From: an uncultured virus (IMG/VR IMGVR_UViG_3300026167_000080)
Taxonomy: Duplodnaviria; Heunggongvirae; Uroviricota; Caudoviricetes
IMG/VR virus record: IMGVR_UViG_3300026167_000080
Length of the DNA: 20,000 nucleotides
Direction: 5' to 3' (one strand)
In this document: positions 4,477 through 20,000 of the stretch, in pieces
How the letters are laid out: each line of letters begins with the position of its first letter
How positions within the stretch are numbered: the first letter of the stretch is position 1
Made by a program: the position numbers and the translations under genes
Notes under the pieces: generated by a model
Databases searched by the model: none
What the model saw: the letters and a program-made list of their open reading frames with translations, nothing else
Told to the model about the DNA's origin: nothing

Positions 4477-4528
4477 TAAAGAGAGACAACTTATTCCTAA
4501 ATTAATTAGTTTCAGTTATCTCTCTTTA
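4477..4528 (-). promoter_or_regulatory. Intergenic stem-loop, 15-bp stem, 22-nt loop
   Basis: TAAAGAGAGACAACT (4477-4491) / AGTTATCTCTCTTTA (4514-4528). The single mismatch is a G-U pair on the minus strand. Confidence 0.65.
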
Positions 4529-4570
4529 TTCCTTCATCTCTTTACCCCTTTTCTCCCCTTCCCTTTATAC

Positions 4571-4617
4571 AATTAGTTAGATTTCCCTCCCGCCCTCCGC
4601 ATACGATCTAACTAATT
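4571..4617 (-). promoter_or_regulatory. Stem-loop just 3' of the 329-aa gene, 12-bp stem, G-rich 23-nt loop
   Basis: AATTAGTTAGAT (4571-4582) / ATCTAACTAATT (4606-4617). No U-tract follows on the minus strand. Confidence 0.65.
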
Positions 4618-4631
4618 TCTATTCTCTTTCT

Positions 4632-5621
4632 CTACATTGGAGAGTCAAAGTTAACTTCACCTTCTGCTGCTGCTGCTGCTGCTTCTTCAGGTACACTTGG
4701 GAAACTAGCAGCAGAGTCGGCTACTCCTTCCTCAGGATTATACTCCGACTCACTCGGTGCAGGCTCTAGCCCTAACTCACTAGCCAATCCTTGAAATAAA
4801 CTATCAGGAATATCAACCCTTGAAGAACTAGGACTAGAGACTTGCAAATAGCGAGCAGCGGCTGCTAGTTTTCGTGACAAGGCGTTGGGGCTAGTAAGTA
4901 CACTGCTACTCATAGCAGCCTGTGAGAGGCGAAGTTTTTGACGATCCTGTGCAATAATGCTTCTAGCAGTAGCATTATTGTTTGCTGCTTGCAGCACCAT
5001 ACTTTTCACCATACCAGGTGCGTATTCAGCCGGTACGAAACTAGGCATTCCATTGAACTGAGCAGTGTACCGCTCAATTTCAACAATATCAATTGCTGAA
5101 GGATCAGAAGGTAACGTTGGTGTGACTGTTTCTACACCATTAGGGGCTAAGAATACCCCTTGAAGAATCGCATGCGGAATACGGATAGTAACCGTAACCG
5201 CGTCTACATTTAGCTCATTCATTTTGTTTTGAATAAGCATCAGTTGCTGACTGTCCACTGTCACTTGAATAGTCACACCCCGACCTGCATTTTCAGCTGA
5301 GGTTGCAATGGGTAGCTGATGTGTCTTACCTTGGGTTGTAATATATTGATACTTCAACCGCTCGAATAGGTTTTCTCCATCTTTTTCTTCTTTTACATAA
5401 GAAGCTTCGTATAAACCTAAGATGTTGTACCACCCTTCGATGGCAGAACGACCTGCGTATATTTCATTTGGATTGGAGATAGTGTCTCTCAACCCACTAT
5501 TATTCGAGTTGGGCTTCAGTCGACGGACTACTAAGTCTACAAACAAATTGCTGTAAGACTTTCCGAAGTTGTAGCTGGTGTTTAAAGGTAAACCTTTAAT
5601 GTTCTTGCGTTTGATGCTCAT
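4632..5621 (-). CDS. Hypothetical protein with acidic/Ala-rich C-terminal tail; candidate ssDNA-binding or other abundant protein; probable paralog of 11389-12039
   Basis: 329-aa ORF with GAGG RBS, visibly higher GC than its neighbours, and tail ...EEAAAAAAEGEVNFDSPM. The SSB role is inference only. Confidence 0.8.
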   Translation of the reverse strand: MSIKRKNIKGLPLNTSYNFGKSYSNLFVDLVVRRLKPNSNNSGLRDTISNPNEIYAGRSAIEGWYNILGLYEASYVKEEKDGENLFERLKYQYITTQGKTHQLPIATSAENAGRGVTIQVTVDSQQLMLIQNKMNELNVDAVTVTIRIPHAILQGVFLAPNGVETVTPTLPSDPSAIDIVEIERYTAQFNGMPSFVPAEYAPGMVKSMVLQAANNNATARSIIAQDRQKLRLSQAAMSSSVLTSPNALSRKLAAAARYLQVSSPSSSRVDIPDSLFQGLASELGLEPAPSESEYNPEEGVADSAASFPSVPEEAAAAAAEGEVNFDSPM

Positions 5622-5634
5622 ATTCGTTTCCTCA

Positions 5635-5669
5635 GAATTGTTGAATTGTTGAATTGTTGAATTGTTGAA
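5635..5669. repeat. Octamer tandem repeat (GAATTGTT)x4 immediately upstream of the 329-aa gene RBS
   Basis: Four perfect copies at 5635-5666 plus GAA; reads (AACAATTC)n on the mRNA strand. Confidence 0.9.
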
Positions 5670-5690
5670 ATTAGATTAGATTAACTTGTT

Positions 5691-6431
5691 TTAATCTAAT
5701 TGTTTATAGGGCCAGTAAAAGGTAGAAGGATCTCCACCTTTTGCTTCATGTAAAGCTAACCCTGTTTGAACATCTAATTTAGGCTTTACATCCTCTCTTC
5801 CTCCTTTTTCTATAAGATGACACCAATCTCGGTCTGAAGTATCAACTACTCCATTCACCAATAGTGGGTGAAAGAATTGGATTTGTGTAAGAAGCCTATT
5901 CTCGTACCACTCTTCTATTACATAGTCAGTGATACGGTATAATTTGCTAGATACATCTAAAAGCTCTCTAGCAAAACTGACTGCCTCTTCAAGATTAGAC
6001 ACACATCCTTCTACTAATCCACCCTTTCGGGTTATTACAAAGGAAGAGGAGTTTTTACTGTCCCCCTTTGCAAACGGATATCTGTTGATAGCTAATTGCC
6101 TATTCGTATATACAGGCTTTAATAGCTCTTCTCTCAGAGAACTTTTTATTTCATCACTATCCCCTCTTAATTTCAGCAGACATAGTACGTCTGCTAACCT
6201 GATTTCCTCATAAGTAAACGTTCTACCTTCTATTACCCTAGAACACGTCTGTTTGTACCCTACCCCTATAACATATACACCTGATATATGCGGGATAGAG
6301 CTTAAAAGCTCCTCTACGTACTTTTCGTTATGTTCCTTTAACCTACACTTATCCTTCTTTCTGACTCGCCTTTTAGTAGGCTTAGGGAGTCCAGGCCTTT
6401 GAGTCCTTCTCTTTTCTAATAGTAATGCCAC
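5691..6431 (-). CDS. Hypothetical protein with basic N-terminus
   Basis: 246-aa ORF, GTG start after AAGGAAAG, K/R-rich first 30 aa. Confidence 0.75.
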   Translation of the reverse strand: MALLLEKRRTQRPGLPKPTKRRVRKKDKCRLKEHNEKYVEELLSSIPHISGVYVIGVGYKQTCSRVIEGRTFTYEEIRLADVLCLLKLRGDSDEIKSSLREELLKPVYTNRQLAINRYPFAKGDSKNSSSFVITRKGGLVEGCVSNLEEAVSFARELLDVSSKLYRITDYVIEEWYENRLLTQIQFFHPLLVNGVVDTSDRDWCHLIEKGGREDVKPKLDVQTGLALHEAKGGDPSTFYWPYKQLD

Positions 6432-6502
6432 TATTTTCTTTCCTTGTTCTTTCTTTGCTTCTAAATAGTTTTAATACTTTAGATGATTATAAGAAGCAGT
6501 AA

Positions 6503-7795
6503 TTAGACAAACTCTAAAGCTTTCTCTTCAAAGAAGAATGACGCTTTTAGAAAATCTAAATTAAATACTCCTTCATCATCAACTGGACACACAACCTTCA
6601 AACTGGTTGTATGTCTCGTGATACCAACAAATGCTCCTCCATGCATCGTAGTCATATGCTGCTCTAGGAACAACTGGACATTCTCAAAGGTTTTCCCTTG
6701 AGAAAGATGCAGGGTTAATGCAAACGCTAATTGAATGGGTAGTCCAAGAACTACTTCTCCCTCTTGTGGTACATACCCTTCCTTATATTCTTTTAGCTTG
6801 CCTTGACTCTCGATTTGGATCTCATATGTCACCTCCTTGTCTAATCTATTTACATAAATGCAAATATTCTCTGTTGATAGATGGACTACTTTGCCAAGGT
6901 CGCCATTCACAACACCTTTCTCCTTATCATTCTTACGAATAATAACAGGACAACCCTTACATAAATATAAAGGGGAATTGCCTAGACCCTTATAGCAATA
7001 TAAGTCTTTACCTTCTGAACCACTATTTACAAACTGTAATAACCTGATGTTATTTCTTTCTTGTAACATCTTTCGGCTAAGACAAATATCTACTTCATTG
7101 GGGTCTAAGGAAGGTGAATCCAACAAGATGCCTCGACTAAGCAAATAGTTCAGAATAATATTTTCTTTCTTAGCCGTGTCTTTCCCTCTTAACAAGGAAA
7201 TTACTTCAGCAAAGTCTTGGTCCTTTTGTCTCACAACTTTAGTGAGCCGGATGACCTTTACCTCTCTTAATCTTAAAGATAAGAAGAATGGCTGTACTTT
7301 CACTCCCAATAATTGAGCAGGATCCATGACTAGACATATCTTAAATCCCAATTTATCTGCTAGATTAAAGAGTTCGTCTATCACTCTCCCGTCTAAAAAT
7401 GAGGCTTCATCCACAATCATTAAGGTGGGTCCCTTTAAAGTTTCTTCATAAAGTTGACCTTCCGCATAATGAGTTAACGTATATAACAAACTATTAAGAC
7501 CATTCATTCCTAAATAAGAATGAATAGTTTTACCATTTTGATATTCTGCTGCAGCAGCTCCCGTAGGAGCTACTACAATAACGTTTGTTCCCTCATTCTT
7601 TGCTCTTTCTATCAACTTACGAGTGTGATAACTTTTACCCGTTCCCGGCCCTCCAGAGACTACTATTTTGTTGTCTTTGCTATCTAGGACTTCACCTAAC
7701 TCTAAGTCTTTATGAAGTCCTGTTCCCTCTGTGTTAAACGTTGATCTTTCTACGACCCGAGGCGGGGTCGATAAAGCTAACTGACTTGCTGCCAT
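6503..7795 (-). CDS. Pif1/RecD-like SF1B helicase (start uncertain: ATG at 7795, TTG at 7831, or fusion with the upstream ORF)
   Basis: Walker A GGPGTGKS, motif Ia APTGAAA, TIHSYLG, Walker B IVDEAS, motif III MDPAQL, motif IV LTKVVRQ, KN..KGVVNGDLG, motif V PIQLAFALTLHLSQGKT, motif VI FVGITR. Confidence 0.92.
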   Translation of the reverse strand: MAASQLALSTPPRVVERSTFNTEGTGLHKDLELGEVLDSKDNKIVVSGGPGTGKSYHTRKLIERAKNEGTNVIVVAPTGAAAAEYQNGKTIHSYLGMNGLNSLLYTLTHYAEGQLYEETLKGPTLMIVDEASFLDGRVIDELFNLADKLGFKICLVMDPAQLLGVKVQPFFLSLRLREVKVIRLTKVVRQKDQDFAEVISLLRGKDTAKKENIILNYLLSRGILLDSPSLDPNEVDICLSRKMLQERNNIRLLQFVNSGSEGKDLYCYKGLGNSPLYLCKGCPVIIRKNDKEKGVVNGDLGKVVHLSTENICIYVNRLDKEVTYEIQIESQGKLKEYKEGYVPQEGEVVLGLPIQLAFALTLHLSQGKTFENVQLFLEQHMTTMHGGAFVGITRHTTSLKVVCPVDDEGVFNLDFLKASFFFEEKALEFV

Positions 7796-8459
7796 CTTTC
7801 TTTGCCTTTGTCTCTCGTCTAATAATTCCAAATCTCTCTACAGATAAGTCTTGTTCCAAAGGTAATTCTTTGTCTGGATTATATGTCTCATCTTTTACTT
7901 TTACTACTTGAGACTTCTTCTGAGGTCTCTGAGGCTTCTGAGGTTTCGTATTATTCTGGAAAGAATACTCCGATTTGGGTACAATAAATACTTCTAAATA
8001 TTCATCTTTAACTTCATAGTCTTTAAGTCTTTCAAGAGAGCCAATGAGTTTCGGTAACTGAACTATAATTCCCTCAACTACCTCTTCATTACAGACCTTG
8101 TCCGTAAAGAATTTGATACTGTTATCATCTTGCTTGATGCTTAGTACTCTTACAAATCCTGCACTACTACAAATAAGCACAGGATTGAAGTCATGCTTTA
8201 AAGCCACATCAAGCTTATTATCCCTCATCCATTCTTCAAAAGATAATTGAAGAACTGTAGAACACCAAGAGTAATCTTGACTGTTCTTTACCGGACTAAT
8301 TAATTTCTTTAGCTTATTACCATATTTGGTAAAGCAAGCTTTACGAATTCCCTCAGAAATCTCTTTAAGATTATTGACTTGTTCAACAAACGATTTGACT
8401 TGAGTAGGATCTAGTCCTAGTTCGTGACACAGGTAATTTAAGACTGTACTGGCAGACAT
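7734..8459 (-). CDS. Hypothetical protein whose 3' end overlaps the helicase ORF
   Basis: 241-aa ORF with strong purine-rich RBS (AAGGAGAGAAGATATT-ATG). Confidence 0.75.
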   Translation of the reverse strand: MSASTVLNYLCHELGLDPTQVKSFVEQVNNLKEISEGIRKACFTKYGNKLKKLISPVKNSQDYSWCSTVLQLSFEEWMRDNKLDVALKHDFNPVLICSSAGFVRVLSIKQDDNSIKFFTDKVCNEEVVEGIIVQLPKLIGSLERLKDYEVKDEYLEVFIVPKSEYSFQNNTKPQKPQRPQKKSQVVKVKDETYNPDKELPLEQDLSVERFGIIRRETKAKKDGSKSVSFIDPASGRRKINV

Positions 8460-8508
8460 AATATCTTCTCTCCTTTTCTTTCCTTTCCTTTCCTTTTTTC
8501 CTTTTATC

Positions 8509-9111
8509 TTAATTACGATCTACATACTGAAGTATATCTCTGTAATAAGGACACTTTCCTGTAGCACGAGAAATAACAGGCTCTGATGCTAGTTGAAAGC
8601 AGTTAGGTCCCATTCTTCTTATTTCTGCAAGTGTAGGAGAAAAATCAGAATCTCCCGATAATAAGACTAATGAGTCTTTTGAATTCATTCCTCTTGAAAT
8701 CCTCATTAGAAAAGCAAATATTAACCCATCTAAATTTGCTTTAACTCTTTGCTCATTCTGATTGATAAAGACTGAACCTTCTACCACGATAGGTATAAAT
8801 CCTAACCTACGCATACTGAAGACATGGTTACTCAACCTTTCCCTTTGAGAAAAAGGTAATCTAGGAGAAACTCCTAAAAATAAATATCTCTCCCTAAACT
8901 TTCCAAACTCTTTATCTAGATTCTCTACTATATTCTTAAGAAGGAAATATATGGCCTTTAAATCAAATGTATCATCTAATGGTGCATTTAAAAATAGAAC
9001 ACCCCAGTTGATGAAATTATTATAATCAACTATTAATACATTCTTATTCTCAATTCCTTCCCCTTCCTCTTCCTTCTTCTTCTTCTCTTTGCTCTTCTCT
9101 ATACTACCCAT
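8509..9111 (-). CDS. NYN-domain (LabA/DUF88-like, PIN fold) ribonuclease
   Basis: N-terminal VDYNN (D-x-x-N), central K-x-x-x-D (VKANLDG) and the hallmark LLSGDSDF acidic motif. Confidence 0.85.
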   Translation of the reverse strand: MGSIEKSKEKKKKEEEGEGIENKNVLIVDYNNFINWGVLFLNAPLDDTFDLKAIYFLLKNIVENLDKEFGKFRERYLFLGVSPRLPFSQRERLSNHVFSMRRLGFIPIVVEGSVFINQNEQRVKANLDGLIFAFLMRISRGMNSKDSLVLLSGDSDFSPTLAEIRRMGPNCFQLASEPVISRATGKCPYYRDILQYVDRN

Positions 9112-9146
9112 CTCTGCTCTTTAATTTATCTATTTGAATTATTAAA

Positions 9147-9704
9147 TTAAAATTTAGTATATTCATGTATGCAATTTTCATTAGCCCATAAAGCTTTATA
9201 AGAAGTCGATATGGTAGACCCCCAATTAGTATGTATTGGACTGGTTAACTCTAATCCAACACTTGAATTCCATTTATCTAATAGTCCTACCTTAGGAATC
9301 CATTTTACTAATCCATGGGTATAGGCTCCTTTAGTATCTCTAATCTTATCTTTAGGTAAAGGACACCAAATCCTTTTAGGACCAGATTCTTCTGACTCTT
9401 CACAAAGATAAACTCTGTCAATAATTACCGTCTTATTGTCTGTGTTTTGATAGAGATGTAGAGATAACCTGATGTTATCTATACACTCGTCTCTTAAATC
9501 TCCAATTAATACATATCCCTTTAAACCTCGACTTACTATAGGGCCCGATGAAGTTGATCTTAAAATCTTTTCACCTATTTTCATAAGCTCTATTCCTTCT
9601 ATATCTTTTAGTCTTTCAACTATAGAACTAAAAACTCCTTCAGGATAATCTTCTAAAGACACTGTTTCTTCTATATTAATAGTTACGGTTCTTGTGGACG
9701 GCAT
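9147..9704 (-). CDS. Hypothetical protein
   Basis: 185-aa ORF co-oriented with neighbours. Confidence 0.7.
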   Translation of the reverse strand: MPSTRTVTINIEETVSLEDYPEGVFSSIVERLKDIEGIELMKIGEKILRSTSSGPIVSRGLKGYVLIGDLRDECIDNIRLSLHLYQNTDNKTVIIDRVYLCEESEESGPKRIWCPLPKDKIRDTKGAYTHGLVKWIPKVGLLDKWNSSVGLELTSPIHTNWGSTISTSYKALWANENCIHEYTKF

Positions 9705-9790
9705 ATCAAACTTATAGATACTGTTTAACTGTTTATTCGAGTATTAATCTCTAAAATCTATATCCCATCCTTTTAGGATTTCTTTGAACC

Positions 9791-9868
9791 AGGATATATC
9801 TTGTCTAATATGTACTTCAATCTGTAATAATTACTTATTGAAATTATTATTAGATCAAGATATATCCT
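9791..9868 (-). promoter_or_regulatory. Long intergenic stem-loop
   Basis: AGGATATATCTTG (9791-9803) / CAAGATATATCCT (9856-9868), continued after a 1-nt bulge by TCTAATA / TATTAGA and an inner TTCAAT / ATTGAA. Confidence 0.7.
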
Positions 9869-9909
9869 CTAAATTTTTATTTAGTTCGTTCAATAAAGAA
9901 TGTGTAAAT

Positions 9910-10425
9910 CTAACTTACACACTCTTTATTGACTGTAGAAAAGTCTAAGAATAATAGTACCTCTTCCACTTGTAGTGGTACTGATCCATTCTTAAATTCT
10001 TCAAGACCCTTTATTCTGGTGTACTCCTCTAAGGTTAATTTTATATGTCTGTCATTGGATAAAACCAATGTATATCCCTCTTGGGTTCTGTTAACCATAA
10101 GAACCTTTAAGGGATTCCAGCTTAACGAACCAGCTAGACTAGTCATACCAGACATTCCTTCTCTTTTATTCCTGAATTCTATGGATTCAGGCTTGAAGAA
10201 ATTGTAAACAGTTTTATCAATCTCTTCTGTAGAAACTTCTCCCCCTATACGAAGGTTGTTTACTATCTTTTCCTCTGTCCATTCATGAGGACTCTTTGCG
10301 TTCCATGGGATGATTACGGTATCTGTTGGGGAGAATTCATAAACGTAATCTCCTCCTACAATCTTAGGAACCCTTAGGACATAAGGACGAGTTCTCTTTT
10401 CCTCTTTTCTTCCTTTACTACTCAT
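9910..10425 (-). CDS. Hypothetical protein
   Basis: 171-aa ORF. Confidence 0.7.
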   Translation of the reverse strand: MSSKGRKEEKRTRPYVLRVPKIVGGDYVYEFSPTDTVIIPWNAKSPHEWTEEKIVNNLRIGGEVSTEEIDKTVYNFFKPESIEFRNKREGMSGMTSLAGSLSWNPLKVLMVNRTQEGYTLVLSNDRHIKLTLEEYTRIKGLEEFKNGSVPLQVEEVLLFLDFSTVNKECVS

Positions 10426-10470
10426 TCTTCTAATTAGCTCTTTGTGGTCATACTTTAACTCCTGTATATC

Positions 10471-10545
10471 TAATACCTAATATCTAATACCTAATATCTA
10501 ATACCTAATATCTAATACTTAATATCTAATACTTAATACCTAATA
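10471..10545. repeat. Heptamer tandem array (TAATAYY)x10 with 14-bp higher-order period
   Basis: TAATACC or TAATACT alternating with TAATATC over 10471-10540. It abuts the 8-bp hairpin ATAAGTCC (10543-10550) / GGACTTAT (10560-10567). Confidence 0.9.
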
Positions 10546-10563
10546 AGTCCATGAGGAAAGGAC

Positions 10564-11211
10564 TTATATTAAAGTTAATTCTTTTCTTTGGGATATGTAT
10601 CTAAGACATTCAAATTTAATACCTTTCTTTAATATATCCTCTTCATCTTTAATAGATATTTGAGCTTCTGTTCTAGATAATAACTCTACTTTACCATCTT
10701 TATTGATGACACAAAATCTGTCATTTATTAAATCTTCTAAAATCTCTTCTAGAACTTCTAATGCATAATGGTCCTCTTTAGGAAAATAATCATAGGTTGA
10801 TATTATTCTTAACTTATCCTGCTTCTCTTTTTCCTCATTAGGATATAAACGCTCCCTTAGTGCTTTTGGGATTAACATTTTATATTCTTCTAAAATTATG
10901 TATCCTCTGATAGGTCGTATTCCTTTTAGTTCAATTTCATATCTCCCTTTATCAGTATCTAATACTAGAAAAGAACTTTTTATTTCCCATTCTTTTAATT
11001 GAACTTCTTTTAAACTTTTCAGCAAAGACCCTCTATTATTTGTCCAGTTATTAATGATTTTAATTATCTCTTCTACTTTAACTGGACCCCCCTCTAGATC
11101 CATGCTTGAATCAGGTCTTATTCTTATTAATGGTCCATTCATTAACCTATATGCAATAGTGCTATCAGTTTTATTTCTTTGAGCGTTATATTTTCTTGCT
11201 TTTAATTTCAT
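10564..11211 (-). CDS. Hypothetical protein
   Basis: 215-aa ORF, very AT-rich. Confidence 0.7.
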   Translation of the reverse strand: MKLKARKYNAQRNKTDSTIAYRLMNGPLIRIRPDSSMDLEGGPVKVEEIIKIINNWTNNRGSLLKSLKEVQLKEWEIKSSFLVLDTDKGRYEIELKGIRPIRGYIILEEYKMLIPKALRERLYPNEEKEKQDKLRIISTYDYFPKEDHYALEVLEEILEDLINDRFCVINKDGKVELLSRTEAQISIKDEEDILKKGIKFECLRYISQRKELTLI

Positions 11212-11264
11212 AATATTTTAATAAATATGGATATGATGGCTTCAATAAAAATAGAAGAAAGATG

Positions 11265-11351
11265 GAAGAAAGATAAGATTAAAGATAGAAGAGAGTCAAG
11301 TTTAAGTTATCTTGAACTCTCTTCCCTCCTAATCTTTAATCCTATTTCTTC
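11265..11351 (-). promoter_or_regulatory. Long imperfect stem-loop 3' of the 216-aa gene
   Basis: Nested IRs: GAAGAAA/TTTCTTC; GATTAAAGAT (11277-11286) / ATCTTTAATC (11332-11341); GAAGAGAGT-CAAG (11288-11300) / CTTG-A-ACTCTCTTC (11311-11324). Confidence 0.65.
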
Positions 11352-11388
11352 TGCTCAAACCTACTTTCATCTTGGCCTGGCACTAATC

Positions 11389-12039
11389 CTATCGCACCGT
11401 ATAACTCGGGACGGGAGCATATTGAGCAGGAGTAGGAGCAGGACTAGGAGTAGGAGTAGGAGAAGACTCCCGTGTACTTTGAGCACGTTCTTCTCGTTCA
11501 CGCTGTTGTTGCTCTCGGAAGTCCTCTACTAAAGGATGTTCAGGAGCCCCTAAACGTAACACAGAGGTTTCCATATTAACCGTCGATGGCCACATCGTAA
11601 TGTTAAAGAAATCGACACGCTGGGTTCCGTCACTTAAATCGAGACCTAAAGTCGCTGGGAGAATCTCCTTGTGAGAAATAATTAACGTAGCCACTTTTGT
11701 ATCTTTCATGGCGGCGTTAACACGAGCGTAGTCTTCTTCTTTCATGTAGAGACGTACAGTGTCACCCTTTTTAATGGGTGCGATACCTAAGTTTTCATCT
11801 GTCTCTTCATACTTCGTTCCGTTGGCTTCACGGACAACTAGGCTCGGAATGCATTGAGCATTACCTTCCGCATTGTCGATAAATTGACCAAGAACTAGTT
11901 TCCAAGGCTCCCCCTTGACCATTACATCCTTAGTATATAAATCGGGATTGTTTTTACCGATATAAAGGGCTACTCGACTAGTAGTCATTACTTGTTTTTG
12001 TTCTTGTTGGGTAGTGGAATTAAATTGGTTGATTTTCAT
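11389..12039 (-). CDS. Hypothetical protein with coiled-coil/Pro-rich tail; probable paralog of 4632-5621
   Basis: 216-aa ORF, GAAGGAAACA-ATG, higher GC than neighbours, tail REQQQREREER...PTPTPSPAPTPA. Confidence 0.8.
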   Translation of the reverse strand: MKINQFNSTTQQEQKQVMTTSRVALYIGKNNPDLYTKDVMVKGEPWKLVLGQFIDNAEGNAQCIPSLVVREANGTKYEETDENLGIAPIKKGDTVRLYMKEEDYARVNAAMKDTKVATLIISHKEILPATLGLDLSDGTQRVDFFNITMWPSTVNMETSVLRLGAPEHPLVEDFREQQQREREERAQSTRESSPTPTPSPAPTPAQYAPVPSYTVR

Positions 12040-12168
12040 TGTTTCCTTCCTGCCTTTTTACTTAGTACATTGATGGTCAATATTTAAGTTGATAACTTAA
12101 ATACGGTTTGATGTTATCTTATATTGACCAAATTGTTTCCTTCTTCCTTGCTCTTTCTATCACTATTC

Positions 12169-12245
12169 GATAGATAGTACCATCTATGTATATAAGATAA
12201 AACTAGAAGTCTCATAAATTATATACATGGATGGTACTATCTATC
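12169..12245. promoter_or_regulatory. 27-bp near-perfect inverted repeat directly downstream of the tilS-like gene
   Basis: GATAGATAGTACCATCTATGTATATAA (12169-12195) / TTATATACATGGATGGTACTATCTATC (12219-12245); one mismatch, 23-nt loop. Confidence 0.8.
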
Positions 12246-12264
12246 TTTCTTTATTTCTACAACT

Positions 12265-12942
12265 CTAACTTAAACTAGCTAATAAAGCCTGGTCTTCTTT
12301 GTCTAAGCTAGTGATATATCTATTTAACCAATCTTCGTATTGATTAGCGAAAGCTCCTTGCATTTGTGAGATGGCTTCTTTGAGCGCTGGGATTAATTTC
12401 TCTACAGCTGCTCTATCACCATGACTATTCTCAGGATCCTCTAAATAAGGAATACTCTTACGAATGACCTCTCTTTTTATATCTTCTTTAGCCATTCGAT
12501 ATAGAGGTCTTACAACCTTTACACCTTGATGATTCCCTATTAAAGGAATAAAACATCTTCGACTATTTTTCAGTCTAGACATTATCCACGAAACTAATTG
12601 ATCTGTTTCATGATGAGCTACTAACAATACAGGTCGTTCATTAGAAGCTGTATTCGTTTTATTTAAGACTCTTGCAAAGAATTTATATCTACTATCCCTC
12701 CAATTAGCTTCCTTATTGTTATTACTACAATCCTTATTATGGATTCCTTCTAACTCACTACTAAGTATTAAAGGTACTTTATATTGATTACAAACCTCCC
12801 TTAATAAATTATCGACTTGATCAGAATATGGATCTCCGTAATGATAATTGATAACTTTAATATTTGCCTTTCTTTCGATAAGACAATGAAGAAGGTACAT
12901 TGAATCAATACCTCCACTTACGGCTAAATAAATATTAGTCAA
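12265..12942 (-). CDS. tilS: tRNA(Ile)-lysidine synthetase-like PP-loop ATPase, N-terminal catalytic domain only
   Basis: LAVSGGIDS (PP-loop), EANWRDSRY, VAHHETDQ, VVRPL, YLEDPEN and a downstream R follow the TilS motif order. TTG start with GAGG RBS. Confidence 0.85.
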   Translation of the reverse strand: MTNIYLAVSGGIDSMYLLHCLIERKANIKVINYHYGDPYSDQVDNLLREVCNQYKVPLILSSELEGIHNKDCSNNNKEANWRDSRYKFFARVLNKTNTASNERPVLLVAHHETDQLVSWIMSRLKNSRRCFIPLIGNHQGVKVVRPLYRMAKEDIKREVIRKSIPYLEDPENSHGDRAAVEKLIPALKEAISQMQGAFANQYEDWLNRYITSLDKEDQALLASLS

Positions 12943-12977
12943 TTTCCTCTCTCTCCCTTCCCTTTTACGATTTAAGT

Positions 12978-13709
12978 TTAAGGTTTTAAACTAGGAACTA
13001 ACTCCTCCTTTATTCTCTGTTTCCTAGACTCAGTCATCACACATTCCTTGATATTCAATCTTAACCATCGACTCATATATACATCTGGCTCATTTTTATT
13101 AAGCCAAGTATCCCATCTAATAGGCTTATAGCTAGAACTAGAATTCTTGACTTCTAAAACAAAAGATTTTAAAGGAATGAATTTTGGATTGACCATATAA
13201 TCATAAACTACTTTAGTTATGATCAATCTCTCATCACTGAATTCTTGATTGAGACCTAATGTAGTTATTAATCTTTTTCCTGCCGGTGTAGCACTACTTA
13301 CTCCCCTTCTTAAATATGGATATTCATTCAGGATATGTGCATATTCCTCTTCTCCTAACACTCTAATTATTTTACTAGAACTGTTACTATTAGGTGAGTG
13401 AGAAGCTTTTATAGCTATATCTGATACTGCAGTGACAAATGATGGAAGAAATGGACCTATCGATTTATTGAAGGCTTTTAGAGACTCCAATAACTCTATT
13501 TCATTTCTCCTCATATATTCGAAAATATCTTTTACTGGTATGTTATAAGGAGTCTTTCTAGTATCAGTAAAGTATATTATTTTATTACTTCTATTGCAGA
13601 CGGGTCTTAAATCTTCCTCGATTATCTTTAAAATATCGGGCCATGTATAACCTTCACAGAATAACCCTTTATTCGATACTAGAATTCCGTCAGGTGTCAG
13701 TTCAATCAT
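12978..13709 (-). CDS. Hypothetical protein
   Basis: 243-aa ORF, tightly spaced with neighbours. Confidence 0.7.
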   Translation of the reverse strand: MIELTPDGILVSNKGLFCEGYTWPDILKIIEEDLRPVCNRSNKIIYFTDTRKTPYNIPVKDIFEYMRRNEIELLESLKAFNKSIGPFLPSFVTAVSDIAIKASHSPNSNSSSKIIRVLGEEEYAHILNEYPYLRRGVSSATPAGKRLITTLGLNQEFSDERLIITKVVYDYMVNPKFIPLKSFVLEVKNSSSSYKPIRWDTWLNKNEPDVYMSRWLRLNIKECVMTESRKQRIKEELVPSLKP

Positions 13710-13715
13710 AGACTT

Positions 13716-14066
13716 TTATAACTTCTTTAAATTATTCAGTTTCTTCTCTATAATTCCTGCAGCCCTTCTTCCTTCATTAGTAATACTAATCAAATCCTCT
13801 CTATACCCCCAAATAGACTCTATTAAACCTTCACTAGCTAATACTTTGGTCATTACGTTTATATCAGCCATTGAAAGACTACGGCCATATTCAATAATAT
13901 GGTGATATAAGTTCTCTTTAGTCTTTGGGCCTGCATAGAGTAAGAGTAGAAATAAAAACTCTAATTCTTTATAACAAGGTTTATTTAAACTCTTGTTAAT
14001 TAAACTAACTATAAACTTACTTGGTCTAACTCTTTTTAACTTCAGACTTTTCAAAAAGGGCAACAT
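13716..14066 (-). CDS. Winged-helix DNA-binding protein, PadR-like
   Basis: LLLLLYAGPKT...LSMADI...LASEGLIESIW...ISITNEGRR fits the PadR wHTH pattern (L-LL--GP...L--EGLIES-W...IT--GR). Confidence 0.6.
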   Translation of the reverse strand: MLPFLKSLKLKRVRPSKFIVSLINKSLNKPCYKELEFLFLLLLYAGPKTKENLYHHIIEYGRSLSMADINVMTKVLASEGLIESIWGYREDLISITNEGRRAAGIIEKKLNNLKKL

Positions 14067-14076
14067 AATAATTACA

Positions 14077-14349
14077 TTAGTAAACTTTTATACATAAACT
14101 TTCCTCTTCCTCTACATTATTCACTTTACCTTTACGTATTATTGGCATTATCTGCTTTCTATTTAGATTACAGATCTTCCTTTTCTCTTTCAAAAGAACT
14201 ATGAAAAATTCACCTACAATTAATATTTTCCACTCTTCATAACTTAACGTTATTGGGTCTTTATGTGTTAGAACCCATTTAGATTCCTCTAACAGTTTAT
14301 CTACATCATATCTAGGACTCTTAATGATTTTTCTTCCTCTTCTTGTCAT
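14077..14349 (-). CDS. Small basic hypothetical protein
   Basis: 90-aa ORF. Confidence 0.6.
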   Translation of the reverse strand: MTRRGRKIIKSPRYDVDKLLEESKWVLTHKDPITLSYEEWKILIVGEFFIVLLKEKRKICNLNRKQIMPIIRKGKVNNVEEEESLCIKVY

Positions 14350-14413
14350 ATCTTACACCCTATACTCTATACCTTACTTTCTTTACCATTTGATATTGAA
14401 TCTATATGCAAAT

Positions 14414-14456
14414 AATATTAGAGATACAACTCAATACCTGTTATATCTCTAATATT
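14414..14456 (-). promoter_or_regulatory. 17-bp stem-loop 3' of the nuclease-like gene
   Basis: AATATTAGAGATACAAC (14414-14430) / GTTATATCTCTAATATT (14440-14456). The single mismatch is G-U on the minus strand. Confidence 0.7.
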
Positions 14457-14471
14457 TATAGACTTGTTAAT

Positions 14472-15224
14472 TTATTTACCTACTCTCATTAACTCTTCGT
14501 TAGTCTTCCACGAACTTAGAATTCTAACGATTTTAGGATATGGTACCTTTCTTTCTAAGGCTACCTGATACTCTTTATAGAGTTTAAAGCCTGCTTTGAC
14601 CATTAAAGGTACTAAGACCTTTAATAACTCTTTAGGACCTTCCTCATTCCAAGAGCGGACGAATACTGTATTGACACAGTCAATATTTGACACACCAAAC
14701 TTAGCAGCTGCAGAGATTACTCCCGCCTCACTACCCTTTACTTGGAAGAAGTAACAAGCTCCACTAGGATGTTGGACAGCAATGTCTACACCGAATAAAT
14801 CATCCGCTGGCGAGAACTGTTGTGAACGAACTAGCTCCTTCACCTCAAACATCTTTAGGATGCTTGCTACTAATTCTTCATTCAAGTCCCCTCTTCTCTG
14901 TCTCAAGGCATGACTCGTAGGATCACCGTCCCATGAAGAAGCATCTCTTCTTGGATCTAATTCAGCATCATAATCACTTTGGCTTGCCAACTTGACAAGA
15001 TTATAAGAGGTTGACGAGACCTCAATTAATTGCTCTAGTTTATTTCCTGATGAATCAAATGCTCCCGCTAACTCTATAGATGAAGATGAAGCCTTGGAGG
15101 TAGAAGCATTTGTAACCTTTTTAATATACTTTTTAGTCCGCTCTGATCTCTTTAAAGGACGCTCTACTTTATGTCCTTTATGGGCTTTGGTGTCCTTTTC
15201 CTTTAATACTAATCCAGTAACCAT
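14472..15224 (-). CDS. PD-(D/E)XK-like nuclease with basic, low-complexity N-terminus
   Basis: RRGDLNEELV (motif I G--E), DDLFGVDIAV (motif II D), YFFQVKGS (Q-x-K motif III variant). Confidence 0.6.
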   Translation of the reverse strand: MVTGLVLKEKDTKAHKGHKVERPLKRSERTKKYIKKVTNASTSKASSSSIELAGAFDSSGNKLEQLIEVSSTSYNLVKLASQSDYDAELDPRRDASSWDGDPTSHALRQRRGDLNEELVASILKMFEVKELVRSQQFSPADDLFGVDIAVQHPSGACYFFQVKGSEAGVISAAAKFGVSNIDCVNTVFVRSWNEEGPKELLKVLVPLMVKAGFKLYKEYQVALERKVPYPKIVRILSSWKTNEELMRVGK

Positions 15225-15277
15225 CTTTCCTTTATCCTTTCTCTTTCCTTTCTTTTATTTAATATCTTCTTTAACAA

Positions 15278-15338
15278 GAATAATGAATGACTGTAATATT
15301 TCTATCTTATATGTATGAATTACAATCATTCATTATTC
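15278..15338 (-). promoter_or_regulatory. 20-bp stem-loop overlapping the stop codon of the 140-aa gene
   Basis: GAATAATGAATGACTGTAAT (15278-15297) / ATTACAATCATTCATTATTC (15319-15338). The single mismatch is G-U on the minus strand; 21-nt loop. Confidence 0.75.
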
Positions 15339-15748
15339 ATAAACTTCATGAGTCTATCCCAGACTATCCGAAGTTTACAAGGCATCTCTTCTTTCTCTTC
15401 TAATCCTTTAACCTTAGTATGAGAAGGAGAATACGTATGAGAATGAGAATGAGAAAGAAATAACTCTTCCAGTAACTCATGGATATTAGAATTCTTATAT
15501 ATATATCCTTGATTCACATCCTCATATAACTCGTTAATACTATTCTGTATAATCCTTGTTAGTTCATCATAAGGCGGTTTGCCATTGTATTTACTCCTTT
15601 CTATCTTACTCTTGCATTCTTCATATAGAGTAGTCGCGTCTTTAATAAACGATGAGGGAGGTACTCCCCCTCTAGGATCACTCTTATAGTAATTGTCTAT
15701 ATATAACTCTCTGGCGATCCTAAGTATATCTGGATTATTTAATGACAT
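15326..15748 (-). CDS. Hypothetical protein
   Basis: 140-aa ORF with AAAGGT RBS; contains an SHSHSH repeat. Confidence 0.7.
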   Translation of the reverse strand: MSLNNPDILRIARELYIDNYYKSDPRGGVPPSSFIKDATTLYEECKSKIERSKYNGKPPYDELTRIIQNSINELYEDVNQGYIYKNSNIHELLEELFLSHSHSHTYSPSHTKVKGLEEKEEMPCKLRIVWDRLMKFMNNE

Positions 15749-15762
15749 ACTTTTTAACCTTT

Positions 15763-16251
15763 CTAACCGTTCTCATCATCATTGTCATCGTTATCATTAT
15801 CCTCTTTTATATACTCCCAAATTGATGATGTGAGTATAGAAGATAGTTGATGTTTCTGCTCCTTTCTCAAACTGATAAACTCCGTACACCATTCTTTTAT
15901 ACTCTCAGCAGAGGCGGCAATTCCTTTCCCACTGAATCCCATATAAACTCTTTCTGATGCACAGAAAACTACAAATACAAATACATTTAAATTAATACGT
16001 TTTGAGTGGATCTCAAAAGGTCCACTAATAAAATCTCCGTCCTGTCGCGTATAGAGAGCTTCTATATCGACTTTTACTACCTTCGGGTCCTCGTATTTAT
16101 CTAGGTTAACACTGAACTGCTGTTGGTAATATATGGCTATACCAAGTCCATCTGACTCATGCTTATCGTGTCTGAATCTTAAAACCCAATCTCCTTCTAA
16201 AATATAATCTTGAGTTGGGGTTCCATTAGGGCCTAATATGAAACTGTTCAT
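15763..16251 (-). CDS. Hypothetical protein with acidic tail
   Basis: 162-aa ORF ending EDNDNDDNDDENG. Confidence 0.7.
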   Translation of the reverse strand: MNSFILGPNGTPTQDYILEGDWVLRFRHDKHESDGLGIAIYYQQQFSVNLDKYEDPKVVKVDIEALYTRQDGDFISGPFEIHSKRINLNVFVFVVFCASERVYMGFSGKGIAASAESIKEWCTEFISLRKEQKHQLSSILTSSIWEYIKEDNDNDDNDDENG

Positions 16252-16263
16252 TCTTTCTATTAA

Positions 16264-16545
16264 TTAGTTCTTATCTTTGATGAATGACCAACCTTTAGGA
16301 AAGTCTTTATAACATCTCTCCTTCGGTGTAAGGGGAATTAAAAGAGGTAAAGACATTTTCTGTTGAAGTCTTTCTTCTAACTGCTTTAATTTCTTTAATC
16401 TCTCTCTTCTAATCCTAAAAAAGATTGAAAGACTTTCTAGACTGGCTCTCTCATACAACTCTATTCTATCGACAGCTACTTCAAGTGATAATATTATTAC
16501 CTCTTCTTGAATCTCCTTATGTACGAATTTATAAAGTACGACCAT
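16264..16545 (-). CDS. Small hypothetical protein
   Basis: 93-aa ORF with GAGGTG RBS. Confidence 0.7.
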   Translation of the reverse strand: MVVLYKFVHKEIQEEVIILSLEVAVDRIELYERASLESLSIFFRIRRERLKKLKQLEERLQQKMSLPLLIPLTPKERCYKDFPKGWSFIKDKN

Positions 16546-16561
16546 TAGGACACACCTCTAT

Positions 16562-17371
16562 CTATACACTAAGTATTACTTTTCTTTTTACCTCTTCTTG
16601 AATCTTCTTATGTAGATTTGAGGAGATTGCTTTTAACATCTCTTCTAATTGAAGGGCTTTAGAAAGACTCTCTATCTCAATGCCTTCCTCAGGCATCTTT
16701 TTATGAATATTGGAGTCACCTATAATGATAGTTTCTGTACCATTCCATCCTATAGTTCCTCTTTCTTCTTCCTTCCACTTCATGAATAATTTGCCACTCC
16801 TCTTGTCAAATGTAATCTTATCTGGTAAGGATAATTTATATTCTTGAGGAGATATAGACCAATTAAAAGTAGAAGCTAAACTTAAATCTATACTTACAAG
16901 GATTTCGTCTTTAGTCTCTATAAATCCTTTATCCTTTAATCCCTCAAGAGGTTGATATGGTATAACCTCCATCTTAGTTAACGGATTTATATGTGGTGAG
17001 ATTCTGAATGCATCACCAATAGTAATCGATAGTCTAGAACATAGCCTCTTTCTGGTTGTTAATTCTGTTTCTTCATTTTTAAAAGCATCATCTATTTCCT
17101 TTCTGACTGAAAAACTAACTTGTCTCGTAGCTTTATTTAATTGATCGGCCCAGGATACCACTTCATCTATCTTCGGTACTATTAATGTAACCCTCTTGTA
17201 ATTGTTTACTAATAAAGGATTATATCCAATGAATTTGCAATCCTTTCCATTTTCATTCTCTTCTACTACCCAATGAAAGAAAGGACATACTGCCCTTTTA
17301 TTAGTAAATTTCGTTAATAGATACGCCCTCAATTCTGGTGTTACGTAATCACTTTCATGTAAATGTATCAT
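16562..17371 (-). CDS. Hypothetical protein
   Basis: 269-aa ORF with GAGGAG RBS. Confidence 0.8.
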   Translation of the reverse strand: MIHLHESDYVTPELRAYLLTKFTNKRAVCPFFHWVVEENENGKDCKFIGYNPLLVNNYKRVTLIVPKIDEVVSWADQLNKATRQVSFSVRKEIDDAFKNEETELTTRKRLCSRLSITIGDAFRISPHINPLTKMEVIPYQPLEGLKDKGFIETKDEILVSIDLSLASTFNWSISPQEYKLSLPDKITFDKRSGKLFMKWKEEERGTIGWNGTETIIIGDSNIHKKMPEEGIEIESLSKALQLEEMLKAISSNLHKKIQEEVKRKVILSV

Positions 17372-17430
17372 AGTATATACTCCTCTAAATAAATAAAACT
17401 AAAGATCTTTCTATACCATCATTTTATATA

Positions 17431-17718
17431 TTATTTGAATGTTGCGTCAGATACACTCCGACCCAACCCTTTCACTTCTGCAATATTACAGAACTGTTCT
17501 CCTAAAGACGAACCAAAGAAATATTGTATAGGCAGTACTGTAGAGTTTAGTTGATGACAAATAAGAAGAATTATTCTTAATGAGATAAATACAGCCCCAA
17601 TTGTTTCTAAACCTAAACTTGGTTTAGTATAATTACTAGTTGGAATAGATCCTATTTCTAACGCTTCATCTAGAATTTGGATCTTTAAAGTACGTAAGGC
17701 TACTTGCTGTATATTCAA
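17431..17718 (-). CDS. Small hypothetical protein with one hydrophobic segment
   Basis: 95 aa; TTG start 8 nt after GGAGG; hydrophobic IGAVFISLRIILLIC. Confidence 0.6.
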   Translation of the reverse strand: MNIQQVALRTLKIQILDEALEIGSIPTSNYTKPSLGLETIGAVFISLRIILLICHQLNSTVLPIQYFFGSSLGEQFCNIAEVKGLGRSVSDATFK

Positions 17719-17720
17719 CT

Positions 17721-17927
17721 TAAAGTCCTCCCCAGTTAATTACTTACTGATATTGAGAATACGGAGGACGGTATCTCTTTTAAGACTTTACTTATTTGTC
17801 TATAAACTCTCTACCTATATCAATTCTTTCTCTCTATTAAGTTAATGATGATTTAATGATGATATAGAAAGAATCTAAAAGGAAAGAAGAAAGCAAAGAA
17901 TAAAGAATCAATATCAGTAATAACTGG
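17721..17927 (-). ncRNA. Candidate structured cis-regulatory leader RNA with RBS-sequestering pairing
   Basis: Long-range IR 17732-17756 / 17908-17927 (20 bp with a 5-nt bulge). Hairpin 17755-17777 has loop CGUCCUCC complementary to GGAGGAC at 17725-17731. Inner IR 17823-17831 / 17866-17874. Confidence 0.45.
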
Positions 17928-18019
17928 TTCTTCTTATTTCTTTTTATACTTTTCTTCTTTTCTCCTTCTCTGCTTTATACACTCTTTTGCTTAGCTCCAT
18001 TACTTTGTTTTACTACATC

Positions 18020-18169
18020 TTACTCTTTCCTTATACAAGTAGTATCATCAACAATTTCATACAGTTCATTAAACCTCTCTTCGCTAATGTTACTGTATGA
18101 ACCGTTTGGATACTTTAACCTAACTTGTTTCTCTTCTGTTCTCTCGTATTCTATTACGTACATGTACAT
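18020..18169 (-). CDS. Small hypothetical protein (49 aa), not in the supplied ORF track
   Basis: MYMYVIEYERTEEKQVRLKYPNGSYSNISEERFNELYEIVDDTTCIRKE*. The start overlaps the upstream stop as TAATG (translational coupling). Confidence 0.65.
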   Translation of the reverse strand: MYMYVIEYERTEEKQVRLKYPNGSYSNISEERFNELYEIVDDTTCIRKE

Positions 18170-18456
18170 TATAAGCTGAACCCTCTAATTGCCCACATAC
18201 CAATGATTCTATTTTGATCGTGACTCAAATCCCCAAATTGAAGATGTTGAGCTAATGTCCAGATACTATCTAGAGACGCACAATTTTGTGCTCTATAGAA
18301 TTCCTTTTCAACTTTTTTATTGTTCACTTCCTTCATTACCATTGCTTTGAAATGGCTTACTAACTCAGGGTCTAATCCATCTGTTAGTAATAGCTCGTAC
18401 AGTTTCTCCCACTCGCATTTTTGTGTACGTTTAGGATTATTATCAACTGCTAACAT
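18169..18456 (-). CDS. Small hypothetical protein
   Basis: 95-aa ORF with AGGGG RBS. Confidence 0.7.
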   Translation of the reverse strand: MLAVDNNPKRTQKCEWEKLYELLLTDGLDPELVSHFKAMVMKEVNNKKVEKEFYRAQNCASLDSIWTLAQHLQFGDLSHDQNRIIGMWAIRGFSL

Positions 18457-18472
18457 ACTTCAACCCCTAAAT

Positions 18473-19144
18473 TTAAACTACTAATACTTCGTACATAGAT
18501 CTGGAAGTACATCCTAAACCTTTAACACACGTTCCATTTATATTAGTCATATAACTAATATGATGGTGTCCATGTATCAAAAGGCTAGGTTTGGCTAACA
18601 TTACCAATTGCTCAATAGCTTCCCTACAATTATCTTTCTCTTCATAAGCTATTACCTCACTTCTAATACCTTCATGGCTCAGAATGATGTCTACTTTACA
18701 AGAGCTTACATTACCTATACATCTATAATATTCTGAGAAGTCTATTGTTTCTTCTCTCCACCAATCTATCCCTTCTTTTCTATAACGTCTATCAGTTGAG
18801 TTAGCCCCTCCGATAAACATTATATTAGAAGAACCTACAAGCTTCATATATCCTCTAGGAATATAGTAAAAGTTATAAGAGTCATATCCCATATCTTCTA
18901 AGCTTATAGGGCTATTTTCATGACGATACCTTTTTAGAACTGAATGATCGTCATGATTACCATCAATAAAATAAAAGGGGATTGGAGAATTTAGATTAGC
19001 TAGGAAATCAGGATAAAGATTAGGAAAGAACCCAAAGTCCCCTACTTGATAAATCTCTTTACATCCCATTTCTTCAGCATAATCTATTGCTTCATATATA
19101 AGCTTAATATCTCCATGAGTATCCCCCACTATTAGTATTTTCAT
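18473..19144 (-). CDS. Calcineurin-like metallophosphoesterase
   Basis: All five motifs are present: VGDTHG, VGDFG, DGNHD, ILSH, HGHHH. Confidence 0.93.
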   Translation of the reverse strand: MKILIVGDTHGDIKLIYEAIDYAEEMGCKEIYQVGDFGFFPNLYPDFLANLNSPIPFYFIDGNHDDHSVLKRYRHENSPISLEDMGYDSYNFYYIPRGYMKLVGSSNIMFIGGANSTDRRYRKEGIDWWREETIDFSEYYRCIGNVSSCKVDIILSHEGIRSEVIAYEEKDNCREAIEQLVMLAKPSLLIHGHHHISYMTNINGTCVKGLGCTSRSMYEVLVV

Positions 19145-19145
19145 C

Positions 19146-19436
19146 CTAATCTAAGATTCGTGGATCAATCTTCCACGGTTCTTCAGCATAGGTGTAGTTG
19201 GGCTTATAACTTTCCGATGACTCTAATATAGAGTAGACTTTCTTATTCGCCCTTCTTTTTCCTTCTTGTTCTTGTATGTAACCCATCTTACATAACTCTC
19301 TTATAACTGTGTGGAGATAAGATGGTGAAACATCAGATTCTAACGCATCTCTGATATCTTCAAATTCTTTAAATTCTTTGGGGTCTGACGATGCTAAAAA
19401 TATGCTGAGTACTTCTTGTTGAAGTTTTGATAACAT
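19146..19436 (-). CDS. Winged-helix DNA-binding protein
   Basis: LSKLQQEVLSIF...EDIRDAL...SPSYLHTVIRELCKMGYIQ...KKVYSI is a typical wHTH pattern. Confidence 0.65.
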   Translation of the reverse strand: MLSKLQQEVLSIFLASSDPKEFKEFEDIRDALESDVSPSYLHTVIRELCKMGYIQEQEGKRRANKKVYSILESSESYKPNYTYAEEPWKIDPRILD

Positions 19437-19453
19437 AATAATTTCCTATTCCT

Positions 19454-20000
19454 TTAGTTATTGCGTAGAATTGCTTCTAATTCTTCTACCTCTGTGTATC
19501 GAGGATTATGCTCTACCACTCTTTTGATTGATAGAACGTCGTCTGTTGCTATTGTTGGTATATTAGATTCTTTCTTTTTACCTATCTCTACCTTTTCACT
19601 TTTACTTCTCCGTTTACTAGGTTTCACTCCGTGTCTCTTGAGAGCACGTCTGTATTTCTTACGGGCATTCATGGGTATATCACCGTAATTTATTTTGCCC
19701 CACTCATTGGCACACATCTTTTGCTCTACAATACCTATCTTAGATCTTAAGCTAGTCAATGTCTTTCTATATATTGCTATTCCTCTCTGACCGCTTATAT
19801 ACGACACTAACGCTTTAAAGGCATTAGGATATGCTACAGCATGAGCTTTATATTCTGACGGTAACCATTTCGCTAAGAGAGATGGGTTCCTTGAACTCAT
19901 ATCTTTTCTTAACGTATCTTTTATAAGCTCCAATAAAACAAGATAATTGAAGTTTGTCTTATCTTTCTCCTTCTCCTTCTCCTTCTCATTATCCTTATTA
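19454..20000 (-). CDS. DUF2828-like (TROVE-related) protein, 5'-partial; the true start lies beyond the window
   Basis: SLLAKWLPSE, YRKTLTSLR..IGIVEQKMCANEWGKINYGDIP match DUF2828 motifs as I recall them. The frame stays open from 19933 to 20000 (NKDNEKEKEKEKDKTNFNYLVL). Confidence 0.75.
   Translation of the reverse strand, partial: NKDNEKEKEKEKDKTNFNYLVLLELIKDTLRKDMSSRNPSLLAKWLPSEYKAHAVAYPNAFKALVSYISGQRGIAIYRKTLTSLRSKIGIVEQKMCANEWGKINYGDIPMNARKKYRRALKRHGVKPSKRRSKSEKVEIGKKKESNIPTIATDDVLSIKRVVEHNPRYTEVEELEAILRNN

Follow-up and report, generated by a model that had tools for sequence, protein, structure and literature searches.

A candidate self-closing translational lock, dependent on the 5' end, in the mRNA of a small orphan protein

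Loss of the first 44 nt of the dinQ mRNA frees an element that pairs next to the Shine-Dalgarno (SD) sequence and thereby opens it, as given in the available parts of PMC5066626, and the antisense antitoxin RNAs of type I systems measure 60-200 nt according to the portion available of PMC8594479. Here we describe a locus on the minus strand of a 20,000-nt stretch of DNA (the whole stretch analysed, hereafter the window) in which, as in the dinQ account available from PMC5066626, mutually exclusive pairings would be switched by loss of the 5' end in the modelled RNA. The predicted unit of ~570 nt (17969-17403, minus strand) takes in the whole of a 95-aa open reading frame (ORF95), and we give a probability of about one half to the reading that it acts as a self-closing lock on the translation of this small orphan protein, one that depends on the 5' end of the mRNA; the elements of this model are collected in Table 1.

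Table 1. Elements of the predicted unit and adjacent signals, in window coordinates
Element	Position	Strand	Remarks
Two TATAAA boxes	17943-17982	-	17982-77 and 17948-43; starts would lie near 17970 and 17936; weak candidates
Hairpin A, purine-rich 5' arm ('lock')	17931-17969	-	Predicted to pair with 17907-17877; activator in stem top and loop; helix p 0.76-0.93
12-nt 'guard' (activator extension)	17928-17939	-	Perfect 12-bp match to 17570-17559 in the ORF, -14.9 kcal/mol
Activator strand B (5' strand of the preliminary description)	17908-17927	-	20 bp with 17756-17732 in the predicted ON fold
Pyrimidine-rich strand	17877-17907	-	Predicted OFF: 3' arm of hairpin A; predicted ON: 5' strand of inner rod with 17811-17776
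Terminal stem P1, 5' strand	17855-17876	-	Predicted full-length OFF fold, p 0.99; part pairs with 17822-17814 in ON
Two tandem 11-nt copies	17842-17863	-	Second copy: possible slid-register pairing with the P1 3' strand, -11.6 kcal/mol
Rod P2, 5' strand, long and irregular	17772-17833	-	Predicted to pair with ORF codons 44-68 in full-length OFF; segments p 0.84-1.00
Weak hairpin showing the anti-SD in its loop	17755-17777	-	Predicted in the ON fold; could also be pseudoknot stem 1; -3.3 kcal/mol
Anti-SD GUCCUCC	17763-17769	-	p 1.00 with the SD in the predicted full-length fold
B', target of the activator	17732-17756	-	Inside the loop closed by the anti-SD:SD helix
Shine-Dalgarno tract GGGGAGGAC	17725-17733	-	Core GGAGG 8 nt before the TTG
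95-aa TTG-start orphan ORF	17431-17718	-	Probably translated; hydrophobic residues 35-53 (17616-17560)
Rod P2, 3' strand, within the ORF	17515-17587	-	Predicted full-length fold
P1, 3' strand	17403-17423	-	8 nt past the stop codon
U-rich tract, 12 of 16 U	17387-17402	-	Between P1, which it adjoins, and the SD of the 269-aa gene

Genome setting and relatives of the locus

The window is A+T-rich and every credible gene in it lies on the minus strand. Its recognisable genes encode a RecD2/PIF1-like helicase (best phage matches 26-29% identical), TilS, an NYN-domain protein, a metallophosphoesterase and a DUF2828 protein; the phosphoesterase has homologs at 7 loci with 25-33% identity, a 329-aa protein gave no homolog, and the homolog search with the 269-aa neighbour of the locus returned only that protein itself. 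Proteins of the window were found on contigs of up to 119,540 bases, and the runs that contain most of its DNA are labelled soil metagenome, with no RNA run listed among them, which carries no information on expression; no capsid gene was seen among the proteins scanned, so the label of large phage is inference only.

The locus is flanked by this 269-aa orphan gene and by an unannotated 49-aa ORF (18169-18020, minus strand), which falls below the listing limit of 50 aa, is present in the protein collection and has a start that overlaps the stop of the upstream gene. The catalytic domain of TilS (tRNA lysidine synthetase; 12265-12942, minus strand) scored above the NCBIfam cut-off, and ARAGORN found 0 tRNA genes both in the window and in L015, the contig of a near-identical strain. 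The DUF2828/PHROG 850 RNA-binding protein (327 aa; window 19454-20000, minus strand; L015 7282-8265) is encoded 1.5 kb upstream of the structured RNA. L015 also encodes three proteins of 102-111 aa (270-605, 4833-5150 and 5756-6064) with hydrophobic N-termini and a common Pro-x-x-Cys core, which are 22-25% identical, match no Pfam family and are probably paralogs, as well as a Staphylococcal-nuclease-like lipoprotein (6537-7049) and a 615-aa protein without family match (709-2556). Around the start at L015 4833, opening the ribosome-binding region of nascent RNA takes 11-12 kcal/mol whatever the 5' end, so that either a local inhibitory hairpin lies there or the start is miscalled. The window has arrays of short tandem repeats, most of them in spacers, at 10466-10545, 5635-5669, 2731-2769, 3581-3625 and 11424-11462, the last of them coding and differing by one 6-nt unit in L015. 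At the unrelated viral loci L025/L071, L026 and L040/L044 a symmetric pair of SD tracts lies between divergent start codons, and the leader of each strand thus bears an anti-SD to its own SD.

Among the matches listed, L015 is the closest relative of the window: it is 99.84% identical over 12,573 aligned bases and carries 17372-18020 without change in one contig. One contig of run X6 spans 17801-17972, also with no differences, and since both contigs carry the identical sequence the locus is not an assembly artefact. A change at 17787, present in one depth-3 contig of one run, keeps a G-U pair in either pairing; it may be an error and was not counted, and the structural reading is drawn from one distinct sequence. 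Searching 50,697 phage records by blastn gave one chance match at E 0.6, while metagenome contigs searched with ORF95 contained at least one locus, that of L015. DNA pattern searches returned 7 loci matching the pattern alone; two further ones returned 0, and another returned 69 loci, 0 of which had BLAST similarity at E 0.05. Across the collections covered, the protein, DNA and pattern searches yielded the near-identical strain and no diverged relative, so that neither conservation nor covariation lends the lock support.

The 95-aa ORF and the predicted folds of its mRNA

ORF95 is probably a translated gene, a putative assignment made from the sequence, and its treatment as a small gene in the preliminary description is supported by its coding signature. 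Its codon score of 0.077 (24 other genes, leave-one-out: 0.033-0.204) was reached by 4 of 5000 composition-matched shuffles and by 0 of 82 off-frame chunks, and also by 10 of 39 spacer frames, these taken without composition matching; a stop-free run of at least 96 codons arose in 20 of 5000 shuffles. Among 38 genes ORF95 shares the top rank for SD strength, and its SD is the most buried, costing 12.2 kcal/mol to open (next 11.5); these ranks are flattered by selection because the locus was picked for its structure. The protein has one hydrophobic segment with a mean hydropathy of 2.11, and this hydrophobic character may be a by-product since the segment overlaps the U-rich strand of P2. AlphaFold on the single sequence gave a pLDDT of 51, with no confident fold and a value too low for a fold search. 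Homolog searches returned only the protein itself among 5.8 billion proteins and among 1.84 billion representatives, with no usable match in the ESM Atlas and none in viral or genome contigs, and no Pfam or NCBIfam family matched. A membrane location and toxicity are putative properties of the protein.

Moreover, nothing in Rfam matched the locus at gathering score and, at E up to 10, the matches were low-complexity ones to unrelated families, which agrees with the preliminary description, where no known RNA family had been recognised. Several candidates were rejected individually: a tmRNA (0 genes by ARAGORN, no Rfam match), a retron (no Rfam match, no reverse transcriptase among the genes scanned), and RNase P, SRP, a group I/II intron and a hammerhead, for which there were no Rfam matches. 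The general hallmarks of the latter RNAs, as well as those of retrons, were compared by eye with the locus.

The preliminary description had drawn a leader of ~200 nt caged by a long helix, and all the pairings that it quoted are present at their coordinates. The closing helix B:B' (17927-17908 with 17756-17732) consists of 13 bp, a 5-nt bulge and 7 bp, with a stacking energy of about -26 kcal/mol; the inner helices of the cage reach -11.8 and -10.9 kcal/mol, the loop GUCCUCC (17769-63) with GGAGGAC (17731-25) -15.7 kcal/mol, and UAAAGUC with GACUUUA -9.3 kcal/mol, the hairpin that bears the loop being weak on its own. These complementarities exceed the local controls. B:B' is outdone in just 2 of 1970 genome windows and in 0 of 967 low-GC windows, which is more than chance; P1 is the strongest of 251 long-range stems in the window (-26.1 kcal/mol) and is outdone in 1 of 1945 windows, P2 in 1 of 980. 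Taken alone, the 241-nt piece first described is modestly stable (z -2.4, 6 of 200 shuffles). The minus strand of 17400-17880 gives z -8.8 (0 of 100 shuffles) compared with z -6.6 for the plus strand, a difference counted in favour of the lock, and a weak strand test by G-U versus A-C pairs gave 12 G-U and 0 A-C on the minus strand and 11 G-U and 3 A-C on the plus strand. The pairings of the preliminary description stood, and its extent was incomplete: hairpin A, the 12-bp extension into the ORF, the rod through the ORF and the stem joining 5' and 3' parts had been missed.

Folds were computed while varying both ends of the RNA, in a model without pseudoknots, and the three folds and their energies discussed here are computed ones. 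The predicted full-length fold contains hairpin A, P1, P2 and the anti-SD:SD pairing, the last of these a conventional nested helix of p ~1. RNAs whose 5' end lies at or above 17960 are predicted to keep the activator in hairpin A, with the SD paired whatever length was computed; hairpin A, a low-complexity purine/pyrimidine pairing, reaches p ~1 for 5' ends of 17985 and higher. For 5' ends within 17956-17920, B:B' is predicted to form in the nascent RNA and to release the SD, and for those at or below 17912 the SD is paired once more. A 5' end at 17940 would give the activator 12 more perfect pairs, with 17570-17559, a segment that P2 needs; this guard pairing competes with the OFF rod and is seen in the constrained ON fold. 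In RNA extending past ~17530 and in every full-length form the OFF fold wins, at full length by 17-33 kcal/mol, and in the model it does so at 20-65 C as well.

Opening the interval from SD to start is predicted to cost 0.5-3.2 kcal/mol in the nascent ON RNA (3' end 17720-17700), compared with 6.9-9.6 kcal/mol in OFF forms and 10.6 kcal/mol at full length. For 3' ends at 17690-17660 the gap narrows to ~2 (6.7-7.0 vs 8.4-9.2 kcal/mol), because the RNA from codons 8-10 on is then able to fold back onto the SD, and when the opening interval includes two G's clamped by B the gap between ON and OFF is just 1-4 kcal/mol. The swing of 7.9 kcal/mol that depends on the 5' end is the largest of 37 genes (next 6.1), a rank flattered by the same selection. 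Of the 76 cage pairs the full-length fold retains none; among 64 control windows none passed both thresholds and one showed as complete a rearrangement (73 of 73 pairs), in a control whose fragment limits were set after seeing the target. Since the cage frees the SD, it would be the ON fold: the alternative-fold, toxin-type switch proposed in the preliminary description is retained in our model, and its cage as the resting fold is not. The loop-SD pairing on which that proposal turned is likewise present, and in the folds other than the cage it appears as a plain nested helix (p ~1). As a pseudoknot within the cage it is geometrically plausible by comparison with H-type dimensions (stem 1 of 5-7 bp, a 1-nt loop, stem 2 of 7 bp and a third loop of 26 nt); it could coexist with the 13-bp arm of B:B', not with the whole 20-bp helix, and it could re-close the SD inside the cage.

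Under the lock reading, an RNA started upstream of ~17960, by read-through or from a distal start, would fold hairpin A first and keep the activator out of play, so that the anti-SD would capture the SD upon its synthesis and the message would be born OFF. A 5' end within ~17956-17920, from an internal promoter or from 5' cleavage, would free the activator, whose pairing with the loop that separates anti-SD from SD, joined at a later point by pairing with 17570-59, would pry the SD free and leave the RNA ON while nascent. Once transcription passes ~17530, P2 and P1 would win by 17-20 kcal/mol and the anti-SD:SD helix would be restored, ON persisting only while ribosomes hold the ORF unpaired or while the fold is kinetically trapped; a protein that would do harm when produced early or without pause would thus appear in a brief, timed burst. 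We infer transcription of the unit, its 5' ends and the trigger of the switch. A further elaboration, which we regard as doubtful, is a viral translational timer working without an antitoxin, OFF on read-through, ON for a 5'-end interval of ~36 nt and OFF again when the rod completes, in which translation would sustain the ON state and its lapse would lock the mRNA. In this elaboration, since P1 is predicted only in the OFF fold and abuts the U-rich tract, read-through to the block of genes downstream might come under the same switch. Should the folds be real, the strictness of the control would make ORF95 a candidate for a protein of lysis timing, exclusion or host killing.

The promoter scan found 6 sites where 7.8 were expected, none of which supports a 5' end in 17956-17920, and no cleavage signal was found for a 5' end in the ON interval. 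A promoter based on the TATAAA boxes finds no support, the motif not being enriched on the sense strand of the spacers (13 vs 10). The plus strand has no promoter match in 16900-18500, and in the ~28 kb outside the unit no trans antisense partner matched the leader over more than 14 nt perfectly or 17 nt near-perfectly. By its sequence the U-rich tract is a possible transcript end; the terminator scan called no terminator, this tract included.

Competing readings

The alternative that survives best, although we consider it unlikely, is a permanently damped or processed mRNA, in which the anti-SD:SD helix, P2 and P1 exist and leave a strong SD nearly shut, P1 is a stabilising or RNase III-type stem bracketing the gene within a long transcript, and the cage is a folding intermediate or a relic of duplication. 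The preference for OFF in every full-length form (17-33 kcal/mol, and at 20-65 C) speaks for it, P1 as the strongest long-range stem brackets the ORF closely, and 17960-17935 and 17797-17772 are 81% alike over 26 nt, a likeness that is enough to produce alternative pairings. However, B:B' lies outside this duplication, is a near-perfect 20-bp helix and is aimed at the loop between anti-SD and SD, while the 12-nt extension of B blocks the best segment of P2; both features speak against this reading.

Less probable is that the ~480-570 nt form a large structured RNA, ROOL/GOLLD-like in size, that acts as RNA, with the ORF untranslated or secondary. The z of -8.8, the closed 5'-3' stem, the long rod, the multibranch domain and the 3' hairpins would suit such an RNA, as would its stability to 65 C in the model and an ORF with neither homolog nor confident fold. 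It is opposed by the gene-like codon position bias of the ORF together with the best SD, by the Rfam result up to E 10, where only low-complexity matches to unrelated families appeared, and by the coding regions of this genome, which fold equally strongly.

A little fainter still is the possibility that the whole arrangement is a by-product of a genome-wide tendency to inverted repeats and has no regulatory role. Long hairpins occur in most spacers and within many genes, and low-complexity purine/pyrimidine tracts make hairpin A easy to form; 7 of 41 non-overlapping 480-nt windows have z < -4.5, and 9720-10199 (-8.6) beats the switch region (-7.7). Because the background is so rich in hairpins, strong folding by itself proves little here. 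On the other hand, the perfect stems elsewhere are mostly local, and the locus is set apart by the convergence, within 570 nt, of three top-ranked long-range helices from mutually exclusive sets upon the strongest SD. Should the folds have no function, the locus would be a clear case of general hairpin richness mimicking a switch.

The minus (coding) strand of window 1-20000 is unusually rich in hairpins, genes included, which may be a feature of the genome as a whole. Examples are a 20-bp hairpin over a stop codon (9932-9890), 9868-9791, 12245-12169 and 18824-18781, and, in the helicase gene, 7578-7549 and 7528-7499; several of the hairpins listed contain G-U pairs.

The least likely reading is the ligand- or protein-sensing leader of the preliminary description, with the loop-SD pseudoknot within the 200-nt cage as the switch: the loop-SD helix is strong (-15.7 kcal/mol), its H-type dimensions are workable and by rough arithmetic the states with the pseudoknot closed and with the 7-bp arm closed lie within a few kcal/mol, yet long and full-length RNAs favour folds other than the cage, the interior of the cage, an A/U-rich rod, offers no evident pocket, no Rfam riboswitch matched, the gene is not recognisably metabolic, and we found no evidence for a riboswitch that binds a ligand or protein.

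Comparison with known systems

A literature search covering few subscription papers turned up no account of a phage leader of this type. The lock can be set beside several kinds of described RNAs, and it is favoured by the demonstration of its logic in dinQ (PMC5066626), aapA3 (PMC6733600) and T4 gene e (PMC3014915). Like ROOL, GOLLD and OLE, as presented in the available parts of PMC12286853, the unit spans several hundred nt with many helices; unlike them, it has no covariance-model match and contains a gene-like ORF with a strong SD.

Regarding the features of type I toxins given in the available portion of PMC8594479, the cis anti-SD that hides the SD has its counterpart in the predicted 7-bp helix (p ~1), and the 5' stem-loop and 5'-3' interaction would correspond to the modelled hairpin A and P1. 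The protein has 95 aa compared with a range of 20-60 aa in that source, and the predicted folded unit, whose ends are those of the fold, has 530-570 nt compared with mRNAs of 150-400 nt. As to the 3' terminator stem-loop, another type I feature, none was called, and P1 is followed by the U-rich tract. Given the 95 aa, the lack of an antitoxin among our findings and a toxicity that is putative, we do not class the locus with the type I toxin-antitoxin systems, membership of which would be putative.

As far as the available parts of PMC6733600, and of PMC5066626 for hok, describe them, aapA3/IsoA3 of Helicobacter pylori and hok/sok resemble the locus in hiding the SD both co-transcriptionally and at full length, in their 5'-3' long-distance interaction and in having structure inside the ORF. 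The difference is that there 3' trimming activates the mRNA; here 3' processing alone cannot be the trigger, because the trimming needed to favour ON, to ~17530, would take away the last third of the ORF. With timP/TimR the locus shares folds that exclude one another and a long-range pairing by which the helix hiding the SD is destabilised, whereas timP switches without processing and its pseudoknot activates, while any loop-SD pseudoknot here would inhibit (PMC13000454 and PMC11228461, in the parts available).

The bacteriophage T4 genes e, soc, 49 and I-TevI offer another parallel, since according to the available parts of PMC3014915 their long early transcripts are shut and shorter transcripts are translated, as the modelled lock would have it. 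For a late promoter inside the 5' arm, as in e and soc, the TATAAA at 17948-43 is a weak candidate, its motif not being enriched on the sense strand of the spacers (13 vs 10). The short T4 RNA, however, is described in the same parts as lacking the 5' half of the inhibitory hairpin, whereas here the anti-SD is present in all forms and a shorter 5' end would unmask an activator, making the predicted control double-negative, with a closing step.

The modelled lock works like the leaders of dinQ/shoB of Escherichia coli, for which the available parts of PMC5066626 give a length of ~200-250 nt, a primary form kept inert by a 5' stem that traps the activator and a small hydrophobic product. The locus differs in having no sequence likeness by Rfam, Pfam and NCBIfam profile search, no agrB-like antisense RNA found and a phage-like host genome. 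With respect to what those parts of PMC5066626 describe, it also differs in its 95 aa compared with peptides under 50 aa, in an activator predicted to pair with the loop between anti-SD and SD and not with the anti-SD, and in an added rod spanning the ORF and a 5'-3' stem that would re-close the full-length RNA. If the folds are real, they would place the multi-step mRNA folding control of type I toxins in a large virus-like genome, with the addition of a self-closing step that depends on the coding sequence.
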